A DNA stretch of 63,691 bases, the filler included, from Folioceros fuciformis (Eukaryota), in assembly GCA_049999805.1 (NCBI GenBank). It is 4 parts of 2 records of this genome, joined end to end, with 100 filler letters (N's around TTAATTAATTAA, not from the genome) between each part and the next. Parts side by side here need not be neighbours in the genome. Positions count along the whole stretch, not along the records: positions 1 to 22,253 come from JBNGIO010006317.1; 3 more parts are not named here. One strand, 5' to 3'. The notes under the pieces are model-generated. The model made no database searches and was not told the DNA's origin. It saw only the letters and a program-made list of their open reading frames with translations. Shown in pieces: positions 1,801 to 50,077 of this stretch. The translations under genes were made by a program, and so were the position numbers. Within the stretch, counting starts at the first letter, position 1, and each line of letters opens with the position of its first letter.

Positions 1801-3206
1801 TTTGGCAAGAGTCTTCCTGGGACAAGAATTGCTTTATCATCGATTGCCAAGAATCTTTTTAACTACTTGTCGATTGAGGACATAGCCAGCCAGGAGAGAA
1901 GTGAAGATGACTTTTGGAGAACTCCTGGGCCTAGCTAGTTCTAGCTGTGTGTCATGAGATAGCCTCACCATTGAGTACTCACTAGCCTAAAGCAAGAAAA
2001 AATAAGAAGGTGAATACAAAACATGGTTTACCATTGATAAGATGCCTGTTAGAGCTTGTGGAGGAGACCCTTCATTGGGATACTAGAGTACTAGAGATAG
2101 GTCTTGAACACCACAAAGTGCAAACTAAGGGATGACAAAGGCTAGGGGATAACGAAGGGGTTGAGAGGTTTAACAAAGTGACTAATGGAGTCTATTGGCA
2201 TTTGCGAGGTTTGATGATAGAAAAGTTGTTAATTTGTTCTTGGAAGTACCAGCTCACAAAGTTAGCCCCCCATTTATGATGCACTAGACTACAAAGTAGT
2301 TAGCTCATCACTTTTTTTATCCTATTCTTAACCTCACTAGACTCTATCTCTTGATACTTCTCATGAAGCTTAGGAGATTAGGATCAACAAGTTTACTACC
2401 AACTTTTTATGAATTCCCATGTATAGGCTCACGACTATACTATGATTAGATGCTCCTCTAGTTTCGAAATAATCCCCATTGATTTTTATGGTCTTTAATA
2501 TTCTGCCATTGATTTCTATTGTCCTTAACCTTAGGTATTGCAAGAAAGGAAGTATGACATGATGCATGGATCCAACATGGTTTTACATGATTATGGTGTA
2601 TTATTGATTATAGAAATATTATTATCATTAAATAATAATGTTGCTATAATCAATTGTTGACTTAGGTCATGTTTCAATTCAAGGTAGATGGAAGAGCTAA
2701 CTACGTTAAAAGGGTTTAGGGAAATGGAAGAGCTAAATTCGTGGAAGATATTTCTGGCTAGTTGTAAATATGCATACAAGAGTAAAAGCCAGGCTGGTTA
2801 CTAGAATATCTGGTGGAGGGGCAAATTTGATTAGTACTCGGGAACAGCGAGTCTGTTTTCCAAGTCTCGAGATTCGCAGCTCGGTGTGTACACAACACAC
2901 GAGCTGCACACCTTGAGACTCACGTGCACCGATCTGCTGCAAATGGAGGCTCGACACATTGATGAGGTTGTTGGTCGTCTACATGGCGATGGGGTCTTCT
3001 CAAGTATGCTCAAGAATCAGACTGAAGACTTCTGGATTCTTGCTCCTCGGAATTCTGCTCTGGCAGATGCATCCGGCAACGAGTCCCGACGTGCGAAGCT
3101 GTGATTGTGAGCTTGAGGCGCTATATAATGCCCGTACACGCTTGCATTCCGCAGATCCTGCCAGGTTCGCTGCAACCTAGAGAGCAGAGGAGCTCAAACC
3201 TCAGCA

Positions 3207-4814
3207 ATGGCAGTTTCCGAAGCCCTAGGTCCGCTCTCGCGATCGGCTCTGCTCCTGGCGACATTGGTGATATTCGGCCTGGCCGGGGCAGCATTCGCAT
3301 CGCATGGATCCGACGCCGCCGCGTGGTTGCAGCTCGATTCATTGAGCGTGTCCGACCCGCTTCCGGTGGTGGATCTTGATGCCGTGAGTGTGCTCCCTCG
3401 GGTGGATGTCGACGCCGTGAGCGTGCTCCCGAAGGTGGATGTCGATTCCGTGGGTTTGTTCCCCAAGGTGCCTCTTCATACCGTGAGTGTGCTCCCGCAG
3501 GTGGATGCGGAGGTCGCCAGCACCGGGCTCCCGCAAGTCGACTCGTCTGTACCGTCTGAGTTGTGGTGGGGCACGGACGCCGCCAATCGCATGGTGTTCC
3601 AGAGTCTGCCCTTCTGCAAAGGCCGCGTCTGGGTCGTGGTGAATCCGACCGTGAAGGGGAATTCCAAGAAGGCCGTCTGCCCGGCTGCAGCTGTGGAGAC
3701 CAGGACGTCGTGTGGTACCTACACTACCTGCACTTTCATTTCCCAATCGGAACACGGCAGGCACGGGAAGGGCCTCTTGGAGCATGATGAGGTCGAGGTG
3801 TACTCATGGAGTAGCATGCGCCGTCACCATCCCGGCCACAAGGGGCGTCACGGGCCTGCTCCCGCACCGCATCACCATCACCATAACAATCATCATCATC
3901 ATCACTACGCCCCGGCTGCCACTCCGCTTCATCACCACAAGGCCCCGGCTCCATCGCCTGCTCACCACCACAAGGCCCCGGCTCCATCGCCTGCTCACCA
4001 CCACAAGGCCCCGGCTCCATCGCCTGCTCACCACCACAAGGCCCCGGCTCCATCNNNNNNNNNNNNNNNNNNNNNNNNNNNNNNNNNNNNNNNNNNNNNN
4101 NNNNNNNNNNNNNNNNNNNNNNNNNNNNNNNNNNNNNNNNNNNNNNNNNNNNNNGCCCCGGCTCCATCGCCTGCTCACCACCACAAGGCCCCGGCTCCAT
4201 CACCTGCTCACCACCACAAGGCCCCGGCTCCATCGCCTGCTCACCACCACAAGGCGCCGGCCCCATCGCCTTCTCACCACAAGGCGCCGGCTCCATCTCC
4301 TGCTCACCATCACCACCATCACAACGCTCCATCTCCTTCGTATCGCATCCGACACAACAAGGGACTGTCGGAGGAAGTGTCGAGCGAGGAAGTAGTGTCG
4401 AAGCAGGAAGTGTCCGGCGTGGAAGACGTGTCGAGCGGGAAACTGTTGGGCGAGGAAGTGTGGCCGCACAATTTCCATCACGGGCATGGGCAGCCGGGGA
4501 AGCCAAGTCCTCATCACGCTCCAGTTGGAGCTCCAGGGCACCGCCATGCCCCGCCCGCCAAGACCTGCAAGACAAAGTGGAACGTGAAGGGCAACGAGAT
4601 CGAGCTGTCGGAGTACGCCAAGGATGTCGAGGTCAAGGAGCCTTGGGGCCACACCGGAGTGGGGTGGGATGACACTTGCAAGTGGCTTCCCAGTCACAAC
4701 GGCACTCAGGTTCTGGTGTGCGTGAAGTGCGCAGCAGAGACCCCGGGCCACAAACCGGGTGTTGCCGAGACCACTGAGAGCGGGGACGAGCCTGTCGAGT
4801 ATCCTCTAGACTAG
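3207..4814 (+). CDS. Secreted His/Pro-rich repeat protein (AGP/HRGP-like chimera with two Cys-containing domains)
   Basis: Single-exon ORF with an N-terminal hydrophobic signal peptide, 11-aa VDVDAVSVLPK-type repeats, a 4-Cys segment, APAPSPAHHHK tandem repeats (interrupted by the gap at 4055-4154) and a C-terminal 4-Cys segment. TATA-like ctatataat at ~3121. Confidence 0.8.
   Translation: MAVSEALGPLSRSALLLATLVIFGLAGAAFASHGSDAAAWLQLDSLSVSDPLPVVDLDAVSVLPRVDVDAVSVLPKVDVDSVGLFPKVPLHTVSVLPQVDAEVASTGLPQVDSSVPSELWWGTDAANRMVFQSLPFCKGRVWVVVNPTVKGNSKKAVCPAAAVETRTSCGTYTTCTFISQSEHGRHGKGLLEHDEVEVYSWSSMRRHHPGHKGRHGPAPAPHHHHHNNHHHHHYAPAATPLHHHKAPAPSPAHHHKAPAPSPAHHHKAPAPSPAHHHKAPAPXXXXXXXXXXXXXXXXXXXXXXXXXXXXXXXXXXAPAPSPAHHHKAPAPSPAHHHKAPAPSPAHHHKAPAPSPSHHKAPAPSPAHHHHHHNAPSPSYRIRHNKGLSEEVSSEEVVSKQEVSGVEDVSSGKLLGEEVWPHNFHHGHGQPGKPSPHHAPVGAPGHRHAPPAKTCKTKWNVKGNEIELSEYAKDVEVKEPWGHTGVGWDDTCKWLPSHNGTQVLVCVKCAAETPGHKPGVAETTESGDEPVEYPLD
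3932..4330 (+). repeat. 33-bp coding minisatellite (APAPSPAHHHK)n
   Basis: Unit aaggccccggctccatcgcctgctcaccaccac is repeated on both sides of an assembly gap. Confidence 0.9.
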
Positions 4815-5534
4815 TTGTAGGAAACAAGATTAAGCATTTCAAGGATACCACGATCATGGTCTTGTGACTGTTTCCGCTGGACTTTGCAATAAGTATTGGG
4901 AATTTGGAGTGAAGCCATTCCAAAGAGCTTGAATTTGATGCTGGTCAGATTCTTTTCCTTGTGACTGCCTGTATGTCTGGGTTTCACGGATACAGAGCAG
5001 TCCTGTTCCGACAGCGGTGAAGAATGATTGGCTGCATGGTGTAACCTTGAATGGATCGATCACAATGTAAGTTGTAAATTGCACTGGACGCGGCTGTGCA
5101 GCCGCAGAAATCCCGCTACTACGGCACGTGTTCGTACAATGCAGAGGTTCCTGAGCTCCTTCCTGATCGTCGAGTGCTCATGCCCTTTCCATTTTTTTAT
5201 AACAAGCGACCAATTGCCAGAGACCCCCACCCATCCTGCTCACGCATCAATGAGTTCTTTTTGAGTGCTATTTACCTTTCTGGAATGCTGTACTGAAACT
5301 TGAAGTCGCCCTCCTGGCACGTTGAACATTGCATTGAGATTCACCTGAGGTACCGATGGAATATTGTTGTTGAATGTAAAGGTAGGCCAGTGGGCTCCAG
5401 CATGTCGCATAGAAGTGTCCCGAAAGTCCTGCATTTAATCCCGGCCGGCCTTGTCACAGACGAGAGACGTGGATCATTCGAGGTTCTCCTGCAATCAGAG
5501 AATGGTCAGTGTCGGGCAGCTGGGAAAGGAGGAG

Positions 5535-7572
5535 ATGGCGCTGATTCAGAAATGCAGCATATGGACGCTGCTTGTTGTTCTTGTCTTCTCTACTGCAGCT
5601 AAGGCAACAACAACAGATAACGTGATTACGCAGTGGAATGCTGTCGCCCAGCAGGTTAGTGCTTCAAACAGAGTGGTTTTAAAGCAGTCAATGTTAACGC
5701 TGTAGTAGCTGGGCGATCTGCTGTGGCCACTGCTTCGGGCCCGGGCAACATTTCTTGGACTGACCATATTTCTCTTGCTCTTGTGCTGAAGGTGGTACGC
5801 CGGCTCGGGATTGCCAATCAAATTGCTGGCAAAAACTACGCCCTGGTTCATTTGTCACAGTACAAGGCACTCCAGCTAGCGTACAAGGAAAAGGTGAAAC
5901 ATCCTGAGGCAGCAGCTGCCTATGCTGCTCATTTCGTTCTCTCGGAGTAAGATTTCACTGGCCATCGCTACTTCATTTGTCCTGACAGTCGTCACATTGG
6001 CAAGCTTTTGACCGAGTGCTCAAGCGTGAAATATTGCTCGTTGTAAACTTCCTGCAGGCTCGCTCCCTTTTTGCAGTCATCCCTTCTGGATCGTGCCTTG
6101 GCCAAGCAAATCCGTCCTCTCCAGCTTTCCGAGGAGGAGGAGTCTGCCCTTCAGACAATTGCTCTGGCTTTTGCCGTGCCCCTCGTGAAAGAGAGGTAAT
6201 TCCCACTTTCAAACCTTCCGCGGTGGTGTTTGCCTGTTGAAAAGCCTGCTGCTACGTTGAGTTCTCAACGAGTGCTTGGACACTCCAGGGCGTACGACGG
6301 AAGTCAGAGATGGGCAGACTTCGTACCTGTTCCTCCAGGCGGCCCAACTGGAGCTTACCAGTTCGTTCCCAACCAAACCTATGCCCTCTATCCCCAGCTG
6401 GCAACCACCAAGCCGTTCCTGATTAAGTCTCCCAAGCTGTACGACCACTTCGGCGGCCCCCCCAAGATTCCAAGCGCACTGTACAATGCCCAATACAACA
6501 CTATCGTCAAATTAGGAGACACCGACTCCCCACACCAGACACAGGCTGAGAGGGATACAGCGAGATTCTGGGACGATGGAAGCAGTAAGGAATGAAAACC
6601 CATGCATATCCCTCCTTGCTTGCGATTGTGAACATTGCTTGCAAAGATTCTCTGCTTCCTGGCCCTCAGCTAAGTTCTGCATAAACGTGGTGTAACCCGT
6701 AGTTTGAATTGGATTTTGGCATGCAGATACCTCGTCTGTTGCAGGGCATCTGTTCAACGTGACTCTTGCAGCAGTTGACACTGACCTTTCGCTAAACGAG
6801 GTTGCCAAGCTCTTCGCAGCCTATGCTGTGGCGACGTACGATGCATCCATTGCTACCTTTTATCAGAAATACAAGTACCTCTTCTGGAGGCCCATTACTG
6901 CTGTGAGGTAATCCTCTTGAACATCTTCCACCAGTTTTTTACTTCTTTCTGGGCCACTGCAACGAAGACACCATTTACGAGTGTAGATGTGGTAGCCATG
7001 GTTTATCCGGATTGAAACTTGGCAGGCAGGGAGATCCAAGGCACAAGCCCGCAGGATTCTCACCTGTGCTAGTGGGCTCTGGATACACACCGGAGTATCC
7101 GAGTGGACACAGTACATTCGGTGGAGCATACGCTGGAGTGCTGTCCAAGTTTCTCGGCAAATCCCCGAGCAGCAAAACGAGGAAGCCTTTCTCTGTAGCC
7201 ACTGAGAACGTATTGCTCCCTCCCCGTACTTTCAACACCATTGAAGGACCTGCGCTGGACATTGTGAGAAGCAGGTACACTGCGAAGCTTCCCCTACTGT
7301 CCCATCCGACGCCATCATGATGGCAGTCTAAGCTTGAGCTCACTCACGTATGTACTTTGCAGAGTGTACGGAGGACTGCATTTTCCGAAATCCAGTGACG
7401 ATGCGTACCACATCGGTGTAGAGGTGGGAGTCCCTGCCAGAAGCAAGTTACAACTGGACGCCACGAGTCCTGATTGTCTGCTTCCAAGCTTGTCTGACAC
7501 GCATCCCTTCTTCCTATGCAGGTTGGCAGCTATGTGTGGGACCATTTCCCCAAGGTCTTCGGTGAGCTGTGA
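5535..7572 (+). CDS. Secreted vanadium-dependent haloperoxidase-like protein (PAP2 superfamily), 8 exons, ~416 aa
   Basis: GT-AG exons 5535-5654, 5792-5946, 6058-6195, 6289-6584, 6727-6907, 7026-7274, 7363-7423 and 7522-7572 splice in frame. Signal peptide present; motifs KYKYLFWRP (Kx6RP), EYPSGHS, SRVYGGLHF; N-terminal DNVITQWN and central ARFW segments resemble bacterial VHPO-like proteins. Confidence 0.85.
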
Positions 7573-8137
7573 GTCGTGACCAAGTGTTTCAGCCTCGTCC
7601 AGCCTCCATCAATCCATGGAACAGACTCAAATGCTGAGGAACACGATCGCAGTTTAAGGGACGTTGCACCGCATCCAAAATACCAGAAAGCTGTTAGAAC
7701 CTCTGAACGATGAATTGATGAGACCGGCGCACGAACAAGGCTTGGCCATCATTGGTAACACACCTACTGAACTGCGCTCTGTTTTCTACACTACCTGTAG
7801 TCGAACCACAGAAGTATGGACAAACTTTTGCCGGACTGACCTCCCCTCACATGACAAGCCTCCGAGAGTCAGTGTCATCCGGGAAATGCGGTGAACGAGG
7901 ATCGTGTCCGGCTCATCCAGTGGATGCGGATTTGTAGAGAGCAAGCTCCTCTCAAGTTGCCAGTTTGTCATTGAATTGTATGCCTTTGAACTCGCTATGG
8001 GTGAGGACTCTTGCGGGGAAATCTCTCCCCATCGTTACGTTCTCCTGGACAGGGTGTAATCCTCCTTTCGCACTTGAGATGACGGCTAATTCCTGGCTTT
8101 GGGCGAGCTGATTCAGAAGCTTTCACGTTCCTGTATA

Positions 8138-10912
8138 ATGCACGAACTTTGCTTCTGCACTGGGTTGCCACCTGCAATTCGGTGGAACGCTGCTGGAGTA
8201 TACGTAGTGGACTGTTCTAGTCCGGGTGTTTGTAGAGAAAATGGGCATGCGATGGGCAGAGGAGCTATGGCTTCTTCAGATTTAGGCGCAGACGAGGGAA
8301 CCAGAAAGGTACAGCCGGCAGTTGTTGTGGAAAGAATCTGGCAGAAATTCTTTTCTGATCCCTCGCAGTGGTGGGACAACAGGCTAAGCAAGGTGCGACC
8401 GTGCCTCAGCTGCTACACAATGCGTGCTCTTTCGCTCGTCCCATTTTTTCTACGTTGTTGAGACCCCAATCGGTAGTTGTTGGTGCAGAATGGCCCTAGA
8501 AGTCCCGACTTTACACATAAGGTGTCCAAGGAGGTTCTCTGGGTGGATGGCAGGTACAAGCCTTCTTGGGTGGATTCTCAGCTGGCTACACTGGGCAATC
8601 ACAGTAGGCCTCCTGCTCGGTGAGTAGGATTTGATCGTGGGTCTGATTAATTCATGCTTTATGGATGCAAATTTCCGCTTTCCTGAGCAAACAAGCACTG
8701 AGTTGTTCGCAGGGTGCAGGGTGAATGGAAGGATGAGCATGGGTTGCAAAATCTCTGTAGGGATGGGCAGCTAGGCTTGGCATTGGATGCTATGCACCAG
8801 ATGGGCCGGGACGGCAGAGTTCCTTCCGTGGAAACTTATTTTCAACTCATGCGGGCATGCAGGAAAAACAAATCGCTGACTGAGGTCAAGCAAGTGCATG
8901 CTGACATGGTGAAGAACGGGATGGATAGCCACAAGTTTCTGGCAGAGCATCTTGTAAACACTCTGGTTCAGTGTAGCAGTCTTGTGGATGGCCTGCAGGT
9001 GTTCCGTAAGTTGTCACAGCAAGACGGTGCGCATCCAAACAGCTTCACTTTCGTCAACCTACTCAAAGCATGCAGCAGTTCACCAGACCTGGAACAATTA
9101 AGGTGGATTCATGGCGAAATCCTAAGACATAGATATGGATCTGATACGTATGTTGGGAGCACACTCGTTCATCTTTATGCTAAGTGTGGGAGCATGGTGG
9201 ATGCCCACGATGTTTTCCGGACACTGCCCAAGTGCAGCGTGGTGTTGTGGAATGCATTGATTGCAGGATATGCTCAAAAGGGTCAACCAAGCAAAGCTCT
9301 GGAGCTTTATGGCCAAATGCGGAAGGAAGGTGTGAAGCCAAGCCATCGGACATTTGTCAGCGTGCTGCAAGCATGTGCTATCTTGGGAGAACTGGAATCA
9401 GAGACACTCTTGGATGGGATGTCGACCAAACTGCAGTCCCTGGACAGAGGGATGGCAATTCATGCTGACGCAGCTCGAAGTGGGTATGGGTCAGATGTGT
9501 TTGTTGGCAATACCTTGGTCAGTATGTATGCAAAATGTGGCAGCATTGAAAGTGCCTTACATATTTTTAATTCTTTACCTGAGCGTGGTCTTGTGTCATG
9601 GAATGCAATGATATCAGGATTCACTCAGCATCGGCAGGACGAAAAAGCTTTGCATTTTTTTGCTCAAATGCAAGAAGACGGGATGAGGCCAGACGTTTGG
9701 ACATTTGCCACGGTTCTTAAAGCATGTACCAACCTGGCAGATATGGAGGCTAGTGTACTTGTTGGCTCTGGCAAGTTTGTCAAAGTGAAATCTCTGGAGA
9801 AGGGGAAGGCAATTCATGCTCAGGCAATTCAAAATGGTTATGCATCTGACGGTTTTGTTGGCAGTGCTTTGGTTAGTATGTATGCGAAGTGTGGCAGTAT
9901 CGACGAAGCGATGGAGATATTTGACACTTCGCTCAAATGCGATGTGGTGTCTTGGAATGCCATGCTTGGGGGTTATGTTGAACAAGAACAAGGAGAGAAA
10001 GCAATACAGCTTTATGCTAAAATGCAGGAGCATGGTGTCTATCCCAATGAAGCATCATTTGTGTGGGTGCTGAAGGCGTGCAGCAATATAGGAGCCCTCA
10101 CTATGTGCAGTCGGGTCCACCAACATGTAGACTCTGCTGGCTATGCCTGCAGTCTTAAAGTGTTAACAGCTCTCATTCACGCATATGGAAAATGTGGCAG
10201 CATGACCAATGCCCAGACAGTGTTCGACGAACTACCACGGGCCGACGTCGTGGCATGGACTGCATTAATTGCCGGGTACGCACGTCAAGGAGATTTTGAA
10301 TCCACCGTTCTGTGCTTTGAGCAAATGGAAAGGGCAGGCTTTAAGGCGACCGGTGTGACGTTCCTATCGCTTCTCTCAGCATGCAGCCACGCTGGTAAGG
10401 TTGAGCAAGGTCTCAAGTACTTCGATTCCATGACGAAGGACTGTGGCATCAGCCCTGCCACCGAGCATTACGTCTGCATGATTGACCTACTTGGCCGGGC
10501 AGGACTGTTCAGCAAGGTCGAAGACTTGCTTTTGGAAATGCCAATGCAACCCACTTGGGCTGTTTGGTCGGCATTGTTGGCTGCCTGTCGGAAGCATGGG
10601 AACGTTGTACTGGGAAGGCAAGCTTTTGACTGCCTGATGCTTTTAGAACCGAACCAGGCTTCACAGTATGTGGTAATGTCTCAGATCTATGTTGATGCTG
10701 GCATGTGGTCCAGCGCTGAAGGGATAGAGAGCTTACGGTGGGGGGCAGGTGCAACATTGAAAAAACCAGCTTACAGCTGGATTGAGCATGAGAAAGGGTT
10801 GAACACGTTCATGGCAGGCGACTGTACACACCAGCAAACCGAGGAGGTCTACAAAATGCTGGAAACAATTAATGGGCAGTTGTTGAAAGAAGGAGAGATT
10901 ATTCATGGTTAG
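8138..10912 (+). CDS. PLS-class PPR protein (E1-E2-E+, no DYW) with N-terminal OSB-type PDF ssDNA-binding motif, ~861 aa
   Basis: Exons 8138-8392, 8489-8619 and 8713-10912 join in frame (phases 0 and 2). The first two encode IWQKFFSDPSQWWDNRLSK|NGPRSPDFTHKVSKEVLWVDGRYKPSWVDSQL; exon 3 encodes P-L-S arrays, E domains and KKPAYSWIE...F.AGD..H. Start codon uncertain. Confidence 0.88.
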
Positions 10913-11099
10913 ACTTAAAGAAAGTGAGGTGACTCCAGAAGTGGAGTGCACCAGTGACTGCAAACAGGTGGCATCTGGCTGTGTGCCACGCATGCTCTTT
11001 CATCCTGTCGAGGACCTCTTCATAGCCTCCTTGCCGGGTGTATCCTGCAGCCTACACATGCCAGGAGGGCATGCTCTTAAACGACAACGAATCAAATGC

Positions 11100-11934
11100 A
11101 AGCCATACATCATCCATGCTCCTAGACTTTGAGTACATGTTCATCAACGGGTTGCCTACAGTCACATCACCTCAATGGTCTTGTTCAATTTGTACGTGAA
11201 GCCGGCGTCTCGCCTGGAAGGCTACAACACTTGCACCTGCCTGTAGGTAGCAAATAAATGTTAACGAATCGCAACATCACACAAGTGAATGTATTTGTCC
11301 CGCACATTGTTGAACACGATGCACTCTCCATTTTGGCCCCTTGTTTTTCGTCTTCTGAGACCAGAACTGGATCAAATGCGCGTTCAAATGCGATTTCTGT
11401 TCTGAGAAGGCAGGGAGAAAGACTGCCGGTGGAGGAAGGCCTTGTTCCTCCATCAAACTGTAAAAACGAACGGCTTCCTGAACGGTATCCTCCTGAGAGT
11501 ATCCTGATAACATGGCATTCCACGTCCTCATGACGTACTACATCGAACACTCTCTGAGCATACTTCAAGCTGCCACCCTTTGCGCACATAGTTATCAGAC
11601 TCTTGGCTACATACTCATCAGCATCAAGCATCATGGCCACCAAACTGGTCACCACATTTTTGTGGCCAAGTCCATCAGGGAGCATCCTCTTAACTCTTTG
11701 CATACATGTTTACCACGAAAAAGTCACCTTCGTGTCCTGCCTGGATCTCTGATTTGAGCGTGAAGCTGCAAGCCTTACTCCAAAGCTGGGGTGCCCTCTC
11801 TTGCACACGGTTGCAGGAGGCACACAAATATCATGCCACCAGAGAGTCATACATCCGTTTTGCTTAGCACCATATAGACGAGGGGCTTCGAGCCCCATGT
11901 CTTGCTGACAATACTCAACAATTCGAGAAGTCAC
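11100..11934 (-). pseudogene. Frameshifted PLS-PPR pseudogene
   Basis: PPR fragments lie in different frames (DADEYVAKSLITMCAKGGSLKYAQRVFD; WNAMLSGYSQEDTVQEAVRFYSLMEEQG) with no continuous ORF. Confidence 0.7.
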
Positions 11935-11960: not shown

Positions 11961-14435
11961 TTAATCATATTCATGCTGAGCGAGTGTCCAGCTTTCCTCT
12001 TCATCCAACTTGACGTGAGCATTTCCGAAGGCCTTATTTCTTGCAATTCTTCCAATGGGCCAAGGTGGATGGATCTCACCCCCAACCAGAAAACTATGCA
12101 CCACTCCATCAATGTCTGTCCACCAGCTTTGACCTGGCTCCTTCCACGCCTTGATTCGCGTTCTCCTCAATTGAACTTCCTGTGCCTTCTCAAACATCTG
12201 AGCACCGGTATATATGTTTGACATCAACACATACGCTGTGGCATCATTTTTGTCTAGCTTCACTGCTTGGTCGAAAGCATGTTGTCCCATCTCCACGTTG
12301 CTCCACTTTCCACAAGCAGCTAAAAGAGTGTACCAGACAGCGGCATCAGGCACTACAGGCATTGTGCTCACAACAGAAAGTGCTTCGTCCAGGCGGCCAG
12401 CACGGCCCAGGAGGTCCACCATGCATGTGTAGTGCTCCACCGTGGGGACGATTCCATATTCTCTGCTCATAGCGTGAAAGACCTCCGTCCCTCTGTCCAC
12501 GAGACCTCCATGACTGCACGCTGTTAGTATGCAAAGGAACGTGATGCCGACTGGCTGTATACCATCCTGTCTCATTCTCTGGACCAGGTCAAAGACCACG
12601 CTACTATATCCCTGATATACATAGCCTGCAATCAGTGCACTCCAGACGACACTGTCTTTCTTGGGCAAAGCATCAAACACTCGCTGTGCATCAAACACGC
12701 TCCCACACTTCCCGTACATGTGTATCAAGCAGCCGGCTACACAAATATCAGCATCTAGCCCTCGTCCTTCGATCTCAGTATGTAGCTCCCTGCCCAAATG
12801 TAAAGCCGCAACATGTGCACAAGCCTGCAGGAGGCACACATACGTTATAGAATTTGGAACAGCCAAACCTTCGTGTTGCATAGTATGGTAGAGATAAAGG
12901 GCTTCCTGGCTCATGCCATTCTGGGAGTACCCGGCTATCATGGCATTCCATGTCACCACATCCTTTTGGCAGAGTCTGTCAAAAATGCCCTGCGCGATCT
13001 CTAGGCTGCCACACTTTGCATACATGTTTACCAGACTGTTGGCTACAGAGACATCAGCTTCATGGCCTCCTCCTTGTATTTGTAAATGAAGCTGTTTTCC
13101 CTTCTCGAGAGCCAAGGGTCCTACAGTTGCACATGCCTGCAGGAGGCACACAAATGTCACGGAATCTGGTGTGACCGCGCCTTCTTCCTTCATGAGCTCG
13201 TAGAGATGAAGGGCTTCCTGCCCCATCCCCTGCTGGGAACACCCTGCTATCATGGCATTCCAAGTAACCACAGTCTTCTGACGAATTTCGTTGAACACTC
13301 TCCTGGCATCGTCCAGGCTGCCACACTTTGCATACATGCTCACCAAACTGCTGGCCACGAACACATCAGCCTGATGGCCCTGGACTCTGATTTGGGCATG
13401 AATGTGCTTTCCCGCGTCCAGGGCTGGGTTCCCCAGACTTGCACATGCCTGCAGGAGACACACAAAAGTGACGGAATCGGGTCTAGCATTCCCTTCTTGC
13501 ATAGCAGAGTAGAGACGAAGGGCTTCCTGCCCCATGCTCTGCTGGGAATAACCTGCTATCAACGCATTCCACGTCACAACATCTTTTCGACCAAGTCCCT
13601 CAAAAACCCTTCGAGCCTGTTCCAAGCTGCCACACTTTGCATACATGTCCACCAAACAACTACAAACAAATAAATCAGGCTCAACGCCACTGGCCAGCAC
13701 GTGAGCATGCAGCTCCTGCCCAGTTTCCAAGTCCAGTCCTCTGGCACACGCTTTAAGGGCTGCCACAAACACATGGCCATCCGCCCTCACACCTGACTTT
13801 TGCATCCGACGATACAGCTGTATGGCTTCCTTGTATTGCCCATGTTCAACATGGGCAGATATTATGGAAGACCACATGAAGGCATCTGGTTTGCCAACCA
13901 GCGTGAAGACGTCCATCGCGTCTTGCAACTTGCCATGAGAAGCATACATCCGCAGAATGTGGTTGCACAGGAACGTACCCGACTGGTACCCGCATTTCAC
14001 AGTGAAAGCATGGACACGGCGGCCCAGAACAATATCCCTCTTGGCAACACATTTCTTCAAGACCGAGTAGACCAAGGCGATGGAAATGCAACAGTCTGTC
14101 TGCACCAAAACTCCCAACGCTTCCACAGCCTCAGCGAGATGCCCCTGCTGACATAGCTCACTCACGCTTTCAGCCGTCACGGTCGACAATTCGTATCCTA
14201 CAGGACTGGAAGAGCAGCCCGGCCAGCCCCACTTGGTTATGGGCAGAGCAGCCAGCAGGACGTTCTTAGACACTACTTCCTGAGACTGGAACCCCCCTTC
14301 CCTGCACGTCCGTGGGACAACTACGACCCTTGCTGGAAGATCCCTTCCCAGCCAGACAAGGTGCTCTTGGGGAGACTGGGCTCCTTGCAAATGCACATGT
14401 ACTGCTGCACCCAAACTGAATGAAAGGTCGCTCAT
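11961..14435 (-). CDS. PLS-class PPR protein, E1-E2 plus truncated WW-type DYW N-terminus, ~824 aa
   Basis: Intronless P-L-S array and E domain (HYTCMVDLLGRAG), ending KEPGQSWWTDIDGVVHSFLVG. First in-frame ATG at 14435; the reading frame stays open to 14522. Confidence 0.9.
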   Translation of the reverse strand: MSDLSFSLGAAVHVHLQGAQSPQEHLVWLGRDLPARVVVVPRTCREGGFQSQEVVSKNVLLAALPITKWGWPGCSSSPVGYELSTVTAESVSELCQQGHLAEAVEALGVLVQTDCCISIALVYSVLKKCVAKRDIVLGRRVHAFTVKCGYQSGTFLCNHILRMYASHGKLQDAMDVFTLVGKPDAFMWSSIISAHVEHGQYKEAIQLYRRMQKSGVRADGHVFVAALKACARGLDLETGQELHAHVLASGVEPDLFVCSCLVDMYAKCGSLEQARRVFEGLGRKDVVTWNALIAGYSQQSMGQEALRLYSAMQEGNARPDSVTFVCLLQACASLGNPALDAGKHIHAQIRVQGHQADVFVASSLVSMYAKCGSLDDARRVFNEIRQKTVVTWNAMIAGCSQQGMGQEALHLYELMKEEGAVTPDSVTFVCLLQACATVGPLALEKGKQLHLQIQGGGHEADVSVANSLVNMYAKCGSLEIAQGIFDRLCQKDVVTWNAMIAGYSQNGMSQEALYLYHTMQHEGLAVPNSITYVCLLQACAHVAALHLGRELHTEIEGRGLDADICVAGCLIHMYGKCGSVFDAQRVFDALPKKDSVVWSALIAGYVYQGYSSVVFDLVQRMRQDGIQPVGITFLCILTACSHGGLVDRGTEVFHAMSREYGIVPTVEHYTCMVDLLGRAGRLDEALSVVSTMPVVPDAAVWYTLLAACGKWSNVEMGQHAFDQAVKLDKNDATAYVLMSNIYTGAQMFEKAQEVQLRRTRIKAWKEPGQSWWTDIDGVVHSFLVGGEIHPPWPIGRIARNKAFGNAHVKLDEEESWTLAQHEYD

Positions 14436-14539
14436 TGGTTGCAGAATCGAGTAGGTTTCTCTCAAGTCAGTCGAGCAGGAGTTGTTTTTCCGTCTAGACC
14501 GCCCTTTCCTTCCTTGAGTCACAGAAGAAAGGCCGCGGC

Positions 14540-45729: not shown

Positions 45730-46995
45730 GATACGCCCCCTGTGCTACACCCATGAGCTCCCCAGCCCATGGAAACCAATTTTGGGCGGCCCTCTTGATG
45801 CCGACAAGAACGTCAACGCAAGGCGCTCCTTCTCAACGTCGCATACTGCCCACCAATTGTGCTATCATTCCCGCCAAATTCCTACTCTTTCCTGCTCCGA
45901 GCGCAATCTCCTGCTCCACCCCGAGCTGTCACGTACCAGTGCGCTCGTCACTCCTGAACTATACGCATCGCCCCTCTTTCTCAGCTCCGTAGCGACAACC
46001 TTTCATCTCTGCTGCTCCACATGAATTCATCTGCCATGAAGGCTGCTCCTCATGATAGTCTCAAGGACAACAGCCACAACCGGCACAGACCGCATATCCA
46101 GGCGGCATCCACGTTCCAACGTCAAAGAACTCATTCACGTGCCATGAATGAAAATGCCTCAGGGGAGTTCAAAGTCGAGCCGTCGCCTTCGGAAATCGGC
46201 TGCGCTCCGGCTGGGACGAACTGGGGTAAAATATTTCACCCCGGTCCTTACGTGATTACACTGGCGCACAGTCGTAGCATGCGATCTCGCCTACGATCGA
46301 TGAGAACTTGAATCATGAATCGCCCGACACGGAATTCTCATCGACTGATTAGGTCAACACGCCAAATTTTTAACTGCCCATCATGCCGGATGTGGAGTGT
46401 GCAAGTTTCCCTTTGGATAGACATATATACTTACTGCACTGCTGTCTCCGGCTACAAATCGCTCTTGGCTCTACGTCACAGCTTCCTTGGCATCTTGCAG
46501 AGGCCGTACAACCTACAACCTATTCAAGATGATTCTAGCGGGAGTGAGGTGGTGGGGTTGGACACGGTCATGCCTGTTGTCCATGAATGCATGCCTTCAG
46601 TACGTCCGGGTCACATGGAGCTCCGCCTCGGCCGACAAGCTTCGAGTGGGCAAAACCTGTGGAGAAGACAGTCGGAAGCAGTCAACTGGATTCCTCCGAC
46701 CGGAAGAGGAGGATGGAACGGACAAGCCATGTCACCTTAGAAACCACCAAGTCTCAAGCAGCAGCCCGTTCTTCGTCCAGTCCACAGCAAAAATCATCTG
46801 TAGACATGACGTTGCCGGTCAGAGCTGGCCGGCTGAATGTGGTGGAGGTTGGATCCAGCCGAACGTGCATTGCAATATGGGACACCCCGAGACGAGGCAC
46901 GTAAGTGGGATACCTCAAGATAAGACGGGTGGCGGTTGAGTGGCACTCAGCACAGATTGTTGAGTAGAGTTCCTGTTCCTGCTCACATCCCCGGT

Positions 46996-49900
46996 TCACG
47001 TCGAGACTATGTCATGCGACAAGCTCTCCAGTGTGTCGTAGATCAGCCTCCTCTCTGGGTGCTCTGAGTCTGTTGCCAAGAATGAGTGCACCTGGTTGTT
47101 GACTTGGATCCAGGTGCAGCCAGGATCCTTGTGCACACCTGCAGAGACCATCTTGCCCAGAGTGTCGGCTTTGTCCTCCCACCTTCCTGCTGCTGCATAC
47201 AGGTTTCCCATGAGGACGTAGGCGGCAGCGTTTTCTGGTTCCAGTTCTACGACGGAGTCGAAACATCGTTTACCCAGCTCTAGGTTGTCATGGTTTTGGC
47301 AGCCTCCAAGAAGAGCCATCCACACGTTTGCTTTGGGCTTCATTGGCATCTCATCGATCAGCGCTTCTGCCTCTGACAGATGGCCCGCACGACAAAGGAG
47401 GTCAACCATCGAAGCATATTGCTTCATGCCTGGAGAAACCCCAAAGTCGCTGTGCATGCGGCGAAAGAGGGCAAACCCCTCGTCCACCAGGCCTGCGTGA
47501 CTGCATGCTGCAAGCACACAGAGCAAGGTGACATCATCTGGTTTCATGCCATCCTCCTGCATTCTGTTGAAGAGCTGGAGAGCTCGCTGCCCATGCCCGT
47601 GCTGCGCATAAGCCCCGATCATCGCCGTCCACGAGACGGCAGTCTTTTCTGGCAGCTTCTCAAAGACGTCCAGTGCGTGATCCAAGCTGCCACAGTTGGC
47701 ATACATGTCAATCAATGTGTTTGCAATGGCTACGTCTGCGTCCAGCCCATTCTGAATCAGCTCCTCATGTACGAGTATGCCCTGGTGGAGTGCAGGAATG
47801 CTGCCGCAGGCTCTCAGGATGCTCAGGAACGTAACCTTGGACGGCTCCATGCCCTCTGCCCGCATTTGTCTGTACAGCTGTATGGCGTCAGATCCAAACC
47901 CACTGTCAGCATAGCCTCCGATCATGACAGTCCATGAGCCGATGTCTCGTCTTGTCAGTCTGTCAAACACTTTTCTTGCTTCAACCACACTCCCGCACCT
48001 CAAATACATGTCAAGGAGAGAATTCCCTACAAACTCCTCCAATCCACTCTTCTCAATCTGGGCGTGAATCTGCTTGCCTTCGTGTAATTCTGCCATGCTA
48101 CCACAAGCTTTCAGCATGTTTATAAAGGTTATTCCATTGGGTTGCACACCGGCTTGCTGCATTTGCTTAAATAGTGAAATGGCCATGTGACCTTGCCCAT
48201 GTGAGGCGTATGCCCCAAACATCGCCGACCATGACACCACAGTCTTCTCGGGCAACATGTCAAAGACGTTTCGGGCATCGTCCAGCCTGTTGCACTTAGC
48301 ATACATGTCAACCAGGGTGTTTCCTATTATGGGATCCAGTTCCAACTTACTCTTGACAACTTGCGAATGAATTTGCTTCCCCTGATCCAAAGCAGCCAAG
48401 CTAGCACATGCTTTGAGCACACTTGCAAATATAGCTTTGTCTGGCTTCACGCCGTCCCTCTGCATTTCCTGAAACAGCTCAAGCGCCTCTTGATCTCGCC
48501 CATTTTGCACACATCCCCCAATTATGGCCTTCCATGACAACACATCTCGCTGTGACATTTTCCCGAACACTTCCTGGGCTGCTTCCAGACTGCTGCATCT
48601 GACATACATGTGCATGAGAGTGTTCCCAACAATCAGACCAGCATCACGACCTTCTTCCATGAGCTTCACATGAATAAGCTTGCCATGATCCAGGGCTGCC
48701 ACGGTGGCACATGCTCTAAGAATGCTCACAAACGTGATAAGATCTGGCTCCTTGCCCTCCTCTTGCATCTGCGTGTACAGTTGAAGAGCTTCTGGAACAT
48801 GCATGTTGTGCGCATATCCTCGAATCAGGACATTCCAGGAAACAACATCTCTCTCTGGCAAGCTCTCAAACAATGCCAAGGCGTCAATCAAGCTGTCGCA
48901 TTTGGCATACATGTCAAGCAGAGTATTAGCTACACAAAGATCTGATGCCAAGCCACTCTGCGTAAGAAGGCCATGCACAAGCCTGCCCTCATCTAGAGCT
49001 GCCAGGCTGCCGCATGCTCGTAGCACACTGAGGAAGGTAACATTGTTTGGCACAACTCCCTCCTGGAGCATCTGCTTGAAGAGATCAATAGCCTCCTGTC
49101 CCAACTCATTCCGCGAATATCCTTGGATCAAAGTATTCCAAACCACAATGTCTGCCTTGGGCAATCTGTCAAAAACCACTCTAGCATCATGCATACACCC
49201 AGCTTTGCCATACATATCAATCAGTGTGCTCCCCACATACAGGTGCCACTCAAATCCGCTCTCCACAACATCCCCGTGTATCTTCCTGCCCTCTGTCACA
49301 GCCCCTGCGCTTGAGCAGGCCTTCAGGAGCGCCACAAAAATCTGGTGGTTTGGCCTAACCCCATCCTGCTTCATCCGGTTGTAGAGCTTGATAGCCTGCG
49401 CAACCCGCCCATGACTGGCATGAGCAGAGATGATTGCTTGCCACATCTGCAAATTGGGTCCCTTCACTTTCTCAAATACGTCATCGGCTTCCACCAGGCT
49501 TCCGCAAGCGGAAAACAAACGGATCAAGACACTACCCAAGTAAGCGTCTTCGTGAAGCCCTGTTCTGAGAATCACAGCCTGTACCCGTCTTCCCGCAGCC
49601 AGGTCCTTCTTCTTCAGGCATCCCTGCAAAACGCTCTTCACAACGTTGGGCGTCACCTGAATTCCTTGTTTTTCCATCGTATCCATGGCCTCAAGAGCCT
49701 CCTCCAGCTGCGCGTCGTCATGCAGCCTGCTCCGACGCCCCACAGACCCAAGGGAGCCCAAATCAGCTGCCGACCTGAATCACCACAGAGAGCACCCTGA
49801 GCCTCCAGAACCAACACCAATGCATCTGAAGACATGATTGAGGGGCACATCGCTCAGGATTTCCCAATCTAGATGCGCACCCACCGGACATGGTTCCCGC

Positions 49901-50077
49901 TGGAAGCTCGGCAGCTGGTGCTTGAATCGGAGAAGCAATGCACTCTCACCCTGTTGGCGCAGGATCCGCTTGCAGACGTCCAGGTAGATTGCTTTGCTCT
50001 ACCCGCAAGAAAATGGATGATCCGAACACAGACCCGCATGACCTCAAATCAAGATGGAAGTTCCGAAGGCTGCCCAT
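46996..50077 (-). CDS. PLS-class PPR protein, E1-E2-E+ (PG-type box, no DYW)
   Basis: Long P-L-S array ending KDPGCTWIQVNNQVHSFLA.D..HP. A probable short first exon from ATG 50077 splices in phase 2 to the large exon near 49774. Confidence 0.9.

Follow-up and report, generated by a model that had tools for sequence, protein, structure and literature searches.

The locus at positions 8138-10912 (+) of the analysed DNA (the window, a stretch of 63,691 nucleotides from Folioceros fuciformis) is a genuine nuclear gene of a seed-free land plant, transcribed and made up of three exons. The encoded protein starts with a short N-terminus of low conservation, followed by a single 55-aa PDF motif, a PLS-class PPR array, and an E motif with a truncated DYW start. 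The gene belongs, as an ordinary member, to a large and ancient PDF-PPR(-DYW) family represented in liverworts, mosses, lycophytes and at least one fern.

The gene model, built from the sequence, codes for up to 861 aa on the plus strand. Exon 1 (8138..8392) offers candidate ATG starts at 8138, 8252 and 8267, carries the first half of the PDF-type motif, ERIWQKFFSDPSQWWDNRLSK, at 8330-8392, and ends in AGC AAG. Intron 1 (8393..8488; 96 nt, GTGCGA..GTGCAG, GT..AG) lies in phase 0 right after a conserved lysine, position 21 of the motif profile, and exon 2 (8489..8619) continues with the second half of the motif, NGPRSPDFTHKVSKEVLWVDGRYKPSWVDSQLAT, at 8489-8590, followed by a short linker. Intron 2 (8620..8712; 93 nt, GTGAGT..TCGCAG, GT..AG) is in phase 2 and divides an arginine codon as CG/G. 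Exon 3 (8713..10912, with the stop codon at 10910-10912) holds the PLS-class PPR array, the E motif and a PG-box-like start. Splicing in silico gave 861, 823 or 818 aa from the three candidate starts with zero internal stops, while retention of either intron halts translation after 107 or 129 aa; an in-frame stop upstream of exon 1 ends at 8089. A previous sequence-only reading of this DNA had proposed two small exons spliced in frame onto a 732-aa PPR ORF. The peptide it quoted and the ORF (8714-10909) are right, but 8393-8488 and 8620-8712, which it took for the exons, are the introns.

To evaluate the model against transcripts we used contigs from two public runs, presumed to be RNA runs: X1, with 0 mismatches to the window, and X2, from a relative that is about 5-10% different. 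Contigs of both omit GT..AG introns and are therefore read as transcript assemblies. The X1 contig aligns over 7900-8390 and then over 8487-8603, skipping intron 1 exactly, and an X2 contig of 5058 nt skips introns 1 and 2 and runs on to 10930. The intron 2 joint appears only in this contig of the relative, there being no X1 contig among those listed over 8604-8837; transcripts joining the PDF exons to the PPR exon, as the sequence-only reading had predicted, are hence present in X2, and X1 confirms the intron 1 joint only. Taken together, the gene model, the Pfam matches and the splicing of the X2 contig bear out the earlier proposal of a PDF motif joined in frame to a PLS-class PPR protein with an E motif. 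Upstream of the aligned stretch the two contigs extend a further 1596 and 1771 nt and, as these 1.6-1.8 kb reach into an apparent other gene, they do not define a single transcript. Depth was 141 for the X1 contig with exons 1-2 and 10-20 for the PPR pieces.

In one X2 contig (side 255), a joint from 9516 to 9617 also leaves out 100 nt of the PPR exon. The corresponding GT..AG stretch of 100 nt (9518..9617, +) lies within conserved PPR coding sequence, and its skipping shifts the frame, giving 397 in-frame residues and a 22-residue out-of-frame tail. We regard it as a candidate exitron, or else a candidate deletion in the relative.

The motif itself was characterized with two profiles. The first, built from the motif of other PPR proteins (16 copies) and run on all six frames of the window, matched the exon 1 ORF at E 4.5e-12 (profile positions 1-24) and the exon 2 ORF at E 2.6e-12 (positions 22-55), with the next-best match in the window at E 0.75. 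The second (A2), containing only the motif from 15 metagenome loci plus the two halves from the window, was searched against 1.84 billion cluster representatives and returned 1147 proteins at E<=0.001, 443 of them at E<=1e-10, reaching proteins named OSB1-4 with E 1e-19 to 1e-30. OSB names occur in 6 of the 10 examined clusters (OSB1 in Populus, OSB3 in Anthurium, 'organellar single-stranded DNA binding protein 3' in Euphorbia, OSB2 in Populus, OSB4 in Tarenaya and OSB2 in Papaver), and 4 of 10 scanned non-PPR motif proteins have an SSB domain above the Pfam cut-off, preceding the motif copies. Since a profile derived from PPR-attached motifs alone retrieves OSB1-4, this motif and the PDF motif of OSB proteins are homologous. 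When the two window exons were compared singly with a Populus OSB1-like protein by BLASTP (E 1e-7 and 6e-6), identity was 45% over 31 residues for the motif half in exon 2 and 58% over 19 residues for that in exon 1, so that the original assignment of the motif to the OSB type is sustained by both approaches.

PPR-attached and OSB motifs have in common the hallmark residues W..FF..P..WWDNR..K....PDF.HK.....LW....P.W, and 17 of the 55 columns are nearly invariant in the PPR proteins. The isolated motif is predicted with confidence to fold as helix-strand-strand-helix (mean pLDDT 86). When the motif profile was run against PDB sequences, the best match was a lectin, at a not meaningful E of 0.022, and fold searches with the motif model gave at best E 3.2 (Foldseek) and Z 2.7 (VIA-align), which does not imply a new fold. 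A motif-only search among proteins of 30-574 aa produced 15 matches from 18 candidates and zero OSB proteins; that search used a word index, and the absence reflects this limit because the exhaustive search recovered OSBs.

Downstream of the motif, exon 3 matches the Pfam families PPR_2 (E 1e-80, 7 stretches) and PPR (E 5.6e-72, 9 stretches), and its PPR relatives are 31-45% identical. The Pfam E_motif (PF20431) covers 10595..10786 (+), residues 628-691 of the 732-aa ORF, with 31.2 bits for a cut-off of 27.3. The C-termini of the relatives align only as far as 10876-10903. DYW_deaminase (PF14432) has zero Pfam match in the gene, the last ~90 residues of 11 DYW-bearing relatives have zero match anywhere in the window, and a DYW remnant sought 3' of the stop codon was not found. 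The C-terminal end is thus of the 'E+' type: the E motif is followed by a truncated DYW start, and the deaminase core is absent. Lacking its own deaminase, the window copy would need one in trans for editing. The Pfam SSB domain is likewise absent from all exons and, having no SSB-like/OB-fold domain, the gene is not an OSB. In the same region, the adjacent minus-strand PPR gene breaks off at the same point, and PPR-like fragments that contain stops occur at 10983-11709.

Beyond the window, the motif proved to be widespread. A motif-only search among proteins of 525-1673 aa found 67 matches from 87 candidates, with PPR families in 67/67 and DYW_deaminase also in 45 (table count). The motif is present in 19 of the 120 closest PPR relatives (bryophyte 2/2, Diphasiastrum 13/23, fern 1/11, Selaginella 0/3, gymnosperm 0/15, unnamed 3/66), PDF-PPR(-DYW) proteins occur in the public proteomes of Sphagnum, Calypogeia, Diphasiastrum and Adiantum, and at least 329 stretches of metagenome contigs encode a relative. 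What had been presented as a singular hybrid is therefore one member of a large, old family. The nearest motif to that of the window is a Diphasiastrum copy, 62% identical. In the window gene the PDF motif stands directly N-terminal of the PLS array; Adiantum P0165 has two motif copies, and some relatives (P0103, P0109, P0149) have two or three.

A shared phase-0 intron within the motif is a further mark of the family: the GT comes right after the Lys-21 codon and the AG right before position 22 in 27 of 28 distinct split loci. Intron 1 of the window occupies the same phase-0 site, after the conserved lysine of WWDNRxxK, as in these intron-bearing members; another 36 distinct loci carry the motif uninterrupted by an intron. 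On the OSB side, the ORF-level fragments in the clusters extend over the first exon only, and the exon shuffling from OSB genes raised by the sequence-only reading would be no more than a possibility. In a FastTree motif tree the PPR-attached motifs group apart from the non-PPR ones, with 10 label changes for a shuffled mean of 62 (0/500 shuffles as low). This tree, based on 55 columns and with most forks unresolved, is compatible with a single origin or with more than one.

No published description of a PDF-PPR fusion was found in the openly readable literature, and the architecture, of which the sequence-only reading likewise knew no account, seems to be undescribed so far. In the available text of a 2026 OSB survey both the PDF and the SSB-like/OB-fold domains were demanded (PMC13393729), the words 'intron' and 'exon' being absent from that paper, and the portion seen of a domain table of 107 Physcomitrium PPR proteins has no N-terminal PDF module.

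Sequence evolution points to a maintained motif. Its dN/dS has a median of 0.17 over 229 pairs, all below 0.5; a flank control gave 1.35 on ungapped positions that are probably not homologous, and has little weight. Across the family, the motif is under purifying selection. Between the window and organism B both listed differences in the first half of the motif (2) are synonymous, and exons 2-3 show no indels, while the preceding 392 nt have two of 6 nt. Before 8252, the 14 listed differences comprise 9 nonsynonymous and 5 synonymous. The 64 residues N-terminal of the motif include 6 acidic and 5 basic ones, a composition unlike the usual transit peptide, and the window copy thus appears to have no typical transit peptide. 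Moss PDF-PPR relatives carry Arg/Ser-rich presequences.

Compared with known systems, the gene shares with OSB proteins a homologous 50-55-aa PDF motif with the same hallmark residues, but has it on a PPR array and without the SSB-like/OB-fold domain; OSB motifs are C-terminal and often repeated, whereas here the motif is single and N-terminal. With the E/E+ PLS-class PPR editing factors it shares the PLS-type array, the E motif and the truncated DYW start, and differs in the extra N-terminal PDF motif. The proteins of Sphagnum, Calypogeia, Diphasiastrum and Adiantum, annotated as 'hypothetical protein' or 'pentatricopeptide repeat protein', present the same part order and phase-0 intron site, although most retain the DYW deaminase (45/67) that the window copy does not have. 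Maize PPR4, as described in PMC9459714, also has an N-terminal nucleic-acid-binding domain on a PPR protein; that domain, however, is an RRM rather than a PDF motif, and PPR4 is a P-class protein acting in splicing, not editing.

The previous analysis leads us to favor, as the probable explanation, a PDF-PPR gene of an ancient family whose array reads organellar RNA and whose PDF motif adds single-strand binding. Mechanistically, the PPR array would read a specific organellar RNA, and, at the N-terminal end of this array, the motif would contribute sequence-independent binding to single strands of nucleic acid. According to review passages on OSB proteins, the PDF motif of AtOSB1 alone suffices for ssDNA binding (PMC6963530), and recombinant AtOSB1 and AtOSB2 bind ssDNA in preference to dsDNA or RNA (PMC4166229). 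By analogy, the motif may bind the ssDNA of nucleoids or transcription bubbles and so hold the factor near nascent RNA, a plausible though tentative extension; the functional ideas of the sequence-only reading (a nucleoid or transcription-bubble tether, action on R-loops, docking of a trans deaminase) would likewise be transfers from OSB reports only. That the motif has no remaining role in the window copy we consider rather unlikely. As far as the available text goes, the moss editing factor PPR56 retains faithful editing in E. coli when its N-terminus is removed (PMC10482289), so that an N-terminal module is dispensable for catalysis in that protein.

The strongest alternative, doubtful but with some weight, is that the motif serves RNA, clamping or keeping unfolded the single strand just 5' of the PPR footprint, and has nothing to do with DNA. 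The remainder of the protein is an RNA reader, and the N-terminal RRM of maize PPR4 sets a precedent (PMC9459714). N-terminal PPRs add only weakly to target selection according to the accessible text of PMC10482289, which would make extra affinity at this end useful. Furthermore, the separation of PPR-attached motifs on the tree makes a shift of ligand possible. However, the hallmark residues are identical in PPR-attached and other motifs, and the recombinant OSB1 and OSB2 of the PMC4166229 text favor ssDNA over RNA.

It is unlikely that the window copy is a decaying or non-editing member which has lost deaminase and presequence, is partly mis-spliced and keeps the PDF motif as inherited baggage. 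This would agree with the absence of the DYW core from the window, the atypical and fast-changing N-terminus, the frameshifting 100-nt skip in the contig of the relative, the truncated minus-strand neighbor and the stop-bearing fragments beyond it. Nevertheless, the spliced frame of 861 aa is intact, much of the gene is covered by contig pieces from two runs, 2.2 kb of coding sequence are free of indels in the comparison with the relative, against two in the 5' flank, and the listed changes within the motif are synonymous. E+-type proteins, moreover, are a recognized working class in flowering plants, dependent on DYW2, in the available text of PMC7076377.

It is quite improbable that the motif acts here as a protein-protein module, through which the protein associates with itself or recruits a partner (a free DYW deaminase, for instance), instead of binding nucleic acid. 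AtOSB2 is reported as a tetramer in the text available of PMC6963530, the near-invariance of the 17 columns is beyond what a non-specific binder might need, and the window copy requires a deaminase in trans. But the tetramer may form through a part of OSB2 other than the motif and, as most PDF-PPR proteins keep their own DYW domain, deaminase recruitment cannot be the general role of the motif.

Extending the favored single-strand-binding explanation to the whole lineage, one could imagine, with little probability, that the PDF motif was an ancestral land-plant module of PLS/DYW proteins, tethering them to organelle ssDNA for the editing of nascent RNA, and that it was lost toward seed plants, where helpers took over. 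The loss is proposed on the basis of the gymnosperm relatives, 0/15 of which have the motif; to our knowledge, MORF/RIP helpers are absent from early land plants. If true, such a role would be missed by heterologous editing assays with truncated N-termini.

Finally, it is scarcely credible that the gene model is an artefact, with the PDF exons derived from the upstream gene (by read-through or as its 3' parts) and separate translation of the PPR ORF: the upstream continuation of both contigs and the uneven X1 depth would fit, but the X2 contig joins the three exons in frame, a stop in frame lies just 5' of exon 1, and dozens of independent loci and annotated proteins show the motif ahead of the PPR array, with the same intron.

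The customary view of PPR editing factors is that of an RNA-reading array joined to a deaminase, with N-termini that are mostly dismissed as targeting signals. Here, a motif reported as an ssDNA binder in OSB proteins is a conserved part of many PPR factors from liverworts, mosses, lycophytes and a fern, making the PDF motif a mobile module that is not restricted to OSB proteins. In the engineering of PPR editors it would be a natural accessory domain, so far untried. For the early land plants themselves, it offers a testable handle on how these factors find their substrates, be it by a link with nucleoids and transcription or by additional affinity for RNA.

The gene at 8138–10912 on the forward strand consists of three exons (8138–8392, 8489–8619 and 8713–10912). 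The exon 1 reading-frame fragment finishes with ...ERIWQKFFSDPSQWWDNRLSK at 8392, where a GT adjoins it, and the frame restarts with NGPRSPDFTHKVSKEVLWVDGRYKPSWVDSQLATLGNHSRPPA past the AG at 8487–8488; a second GT..AG pair (8620–8712) joins it, in phase 2, to the 732-aa PPR ORF, whose last position is 10912. Spliced in silico, the product is free of internal stops and, for the three candidate starts, 861, 823 or 818 aa long; with one or other intron retained, translation would halt after 107 or 129 aa. The sequence-only reading had taken 8393–8488 and 8620–8712 for exons; these are in fact the two introns, and the rest of its description, an OSB-type PDF motif spliced in frame onto a PLS-class PPR protein, stands. 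A profile of 16 motif copies from other PPR proteins matches both exon ORFs (E 4.5e-12 over positions 1–24 and 2.6e-12 over positions 22–55), the runner-up in the six frames of the 63.7-kb window reaching only E 0.75.

One search of public runs returned two holders of the gene, stored as assembled contigs and of guessed RNA status, which we read as transcript assemblies because the contigs skip GT..AG introns. The run X1 matches the window with 0 mismatches, and its contig spans 7900–8390 and then 8487–8603, exactly skipping intron 1. The run X2 comes from a relative (organism B) in which about 5–10% of positions differ, and its 5058-nt contig covers 7999–8390, 8487–8618, 8712–9516 and 9617–10930. 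The intron 1 joint proposed from the sequence is therefore present in both runs, and the intron 2 joint in the relative only. The X2 contig also lacks 9518–9617, 100 nt bounded by GT..AG within conserved PPR coding sequence (..MYAKCGSIESA..VSWNAMISG..), the loss of which shifts the frame: 397 residues would remain in frame, followed by an out-of-frame tail of 22. One X1 contig continues beyond 9517 as far as 9541, so that some molecules, at least, of the window's own organism retain the 100 nt, and another begins at 9617, the 3' end of the stretch. The stretch is a candidate exitron; alternatively, the relative may have suffered a deletion.

The exon 1–2 contigs extend upstream, by 1596 nt in X1 and 1771 nt in X2, into an apparently different gene, and so define neither a single transcript nor its start. 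ORFs of this upstream region (about 5400–7600, forward strand, and 7900–8137), such as ..YTPEYPSGHSTFGG.. and ..RVYGGLHFPKS.., gave a Pfam PAP2 match below the cut-off (E 0.0087) and a PDB bromoperoxidase match (E 0.093), which point only weakly to a PAP2/vanadium haloperoxidase-like gene whose transcripts may overlap or read through into those of the PPR gene. Elsewhere in the window, a long forward ORF (3129–4814) with many His/Pro-rich repeats (HHHKAPAPSPA), spanning an assembly N run at about 4.0–4.15 kb, looks like a repetitive proline-rich protein.

Pfam holds no model for the motif, and a word-indexed motif search gave PPR fragments only; 80 related metagenome loci were therefore gathered for a motif-only alignment, set by coordinates from 15 of these loci and the two halves in the window. 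Against 1.84 billion cluster representatives, the resulting profile matched 1147 proteins at E<=0.001, 443 at E<=1e-10 and 49 at E<=1e-30. Among the 150 matches listed, 12 carried a PPR array and 138 did not, the latter including some N-terminal fragments of PPR genes, so that not all are OSBs. Six of ten clusters looked up bear source-given OSB names (OSB1 and OSB2 of Populus, OSB3 of Anthurium, OSB3 of Euphorbia, OSB4 of Tarenaya and OSB2 of Papaver). In four of ten other matches scanned an SSB domain stands above the Pfam cut-off ahead of the motif copies, the remaining six giving SSB below cut-off (2), nothing (3) or kinesin (1). By direct BLASTP, a Populus OSB1-like protein aligns with exon 1 at 58% identity over 19 residues (E 1e-7) and with exon 2 at 45% over 31 residues (E 6e-6). 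Taken together, these matches support the motif as a relative of the OSB PDF motif, as had been proposed. The gene itself is not an OSB since, in contrast to the SSB-bearing matches, it has no SSB-like domain. Three long matches, P0177 of Coptis (1526 aa; three motif copies, then a kinesin motor), P0161 of Striga (1063 aa, named 'Interactor of constitutive active ROPs 2'; a weak SSB match and three copies) and P0136 of Kingdonia (1160 aa; 13 copies), could reflect the merging of gene models or else additional architectures.

On the PPR side, exon 3 has strong Pfam PPR matches and an E motif above cut-off, with no DYW deaminase match in the gene and no Pfam match of any kind in exons 1 and 2. 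When the C-terminal 260 residues of 11 DYW-bearing relatives are compared with the window, alignment extends no further than about residue 170 and stops at 10876–10903; the final ~90 residues match nowhere in the window. The convergent reverse-strand PPR gene at 12066–14500 (about 12.1–14.5 kb) stops matching at the same point and has no DYW core; PPR-like fragments with stops (10983–11709, reverse strand) lie between the two. A third reverse-strand PPR locus, at 46500–50000, was found by tblastn with the 120 closest PPR relatives. The motif profile detects no PDF motif at either reverse-strand locus.

The motif is continuous in 40 of the 80 metagenome loci (36 distinct), split in 35 (28 distinct) and partial in 5. 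Of the 28 distinct split loci, 27 have GT immediately behind the conserved Lys codon and AG immediately ahead of the next motif position, which is the phase-0 site of intron 1; only L052, a degenerate copy containing a stop, departs from this. Several database proteins called at ORF level terminate in ...WWDNRFEK-VGE, reading into the intron at this shared site. Among these loci (L001–L080, apparent moss contigs in plant-associated metagenomes) the phase-0 intron is thus present in 27 distinct loci or absent in 36, which suggests intron loss or retroposed copies as the PDF-PPR family expanded.

The selection analysis rests on 25 equal-length sequences among the 36 distinct continuous motifs, excluding L008, L011, L013, L018, L025, L036, L048, L053, L054, L058 and L068. 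In the 229 of 300 possible pairs with dS of 0.1–2, the median dN/dS is 0.17 and every value is below 0.5; neutral evolution, the counter-case raised in the sequence-only reading, is not what the motif displays. Between the window and organism B, 24 differences in exon 1 were listed, with a further 135 across the gene outside the listing. Listed differences before 8252 comprise nine nonsynonymous and five synonymous changes, and those at 8266–8347 three and seven; both in the first half of the motif are synonymous. The coding pieces of exons 2 and 3 hold zero indels, and the preceding 392 nt two of 6 nt each.

The motif modelled alone is predicted to form a helix, two short strands and a helix (mean pLDDT 86); sequence and fold searches returned no solved relative, which is not proof of a new fold. 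Mechanistically, the PPR array would bind a specific organellar RNA, while the PDF motif would bind single-stranded nucleic acid, independently of sequence, at the N-terminal end. We rank first, tentatively and at somewhat under even chances, a motif target in the ssDNA of nucleoids or transcription bubbles: a 50-aa motif of AtOSB1 is reported to suffice for ssDNA binding (PMC6963530), and recombinant OSB1 and OSB2 to favour ssDNA over dsDNA or RNA (PMC4166229). RNA beside the PPR footprint comes second, as a possible though less probable target. Docking of a protein appears unlikely, and just as doubtful is a motif left with no role in the window copy. With no deaminase core in this copy, editing would be possible only with a deaminase in trans, and the protein, with its unusual N-terminus, is only putatively organellar.

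The motif occurs in 19 of the 120 closest PPR relatives: 2/2 from bryophytes, 13/23 from Diphasiastrum, 1/11 from ferns, 0/3 from Selaginella, 0/15 from gymnosperms and 3/66 unnamed, many of the last being called at ORF level, where a spliced first exon would go unnoticed. With the motif of one Sphagnum protein as the sole query, 67 of 87 candidates matched (proteins of 525–1673 aa, from seven Sphagnum species, Calypogeia fissa and Diphasiastrum); all 67 contain PPR families and 45, by our count, a DYW deaminase too. Some lycophyte proteins have two or three motif copies, and in Adiantum P0165 two precede the PPR array.

Full-text literature searches gave no description of a PDF motif on a PPR protein, subscription journals and supplements lying outside this scope, so that an earlier mention is possible. 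Both PPR mentions in PMC6963530 concern RNA polymerases, and a 2026 survey of 182 OSB genes (PMC13393729), in which the word pentatricopeptide is absent, retained only proteins with PDF and OB-fold domains, thus excluding PDF-PPR proteins by design. PMC9459714 tabulates domains of 107 Physcomitrium PPR proteins, the extra ones being RRM, SMR, LAGLIDADG and NYN, and PMC10482289 reports moss PPR56 expressed without its N-terminus.

A FastTree of 192 motif instances (all 82 PPR-attached motifs, including that of the window, and a random 110 of 271 distinct non-PPR motifs) required 10 PPR/non-PPR label changes, whereas shuffles averaged 62 and none of the 500 went as low. The rows nearest to the window motif belong to Diphasiastrum PPR motifs, with identities of 62% or less. 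With 55 columns most forks of the tree are open, and the PDF-PPR fusion may or may not have a single origin. What had seemed a unique hybrid belongs instead to a PDF-PPR family that is large and old and that seems not to have been described.
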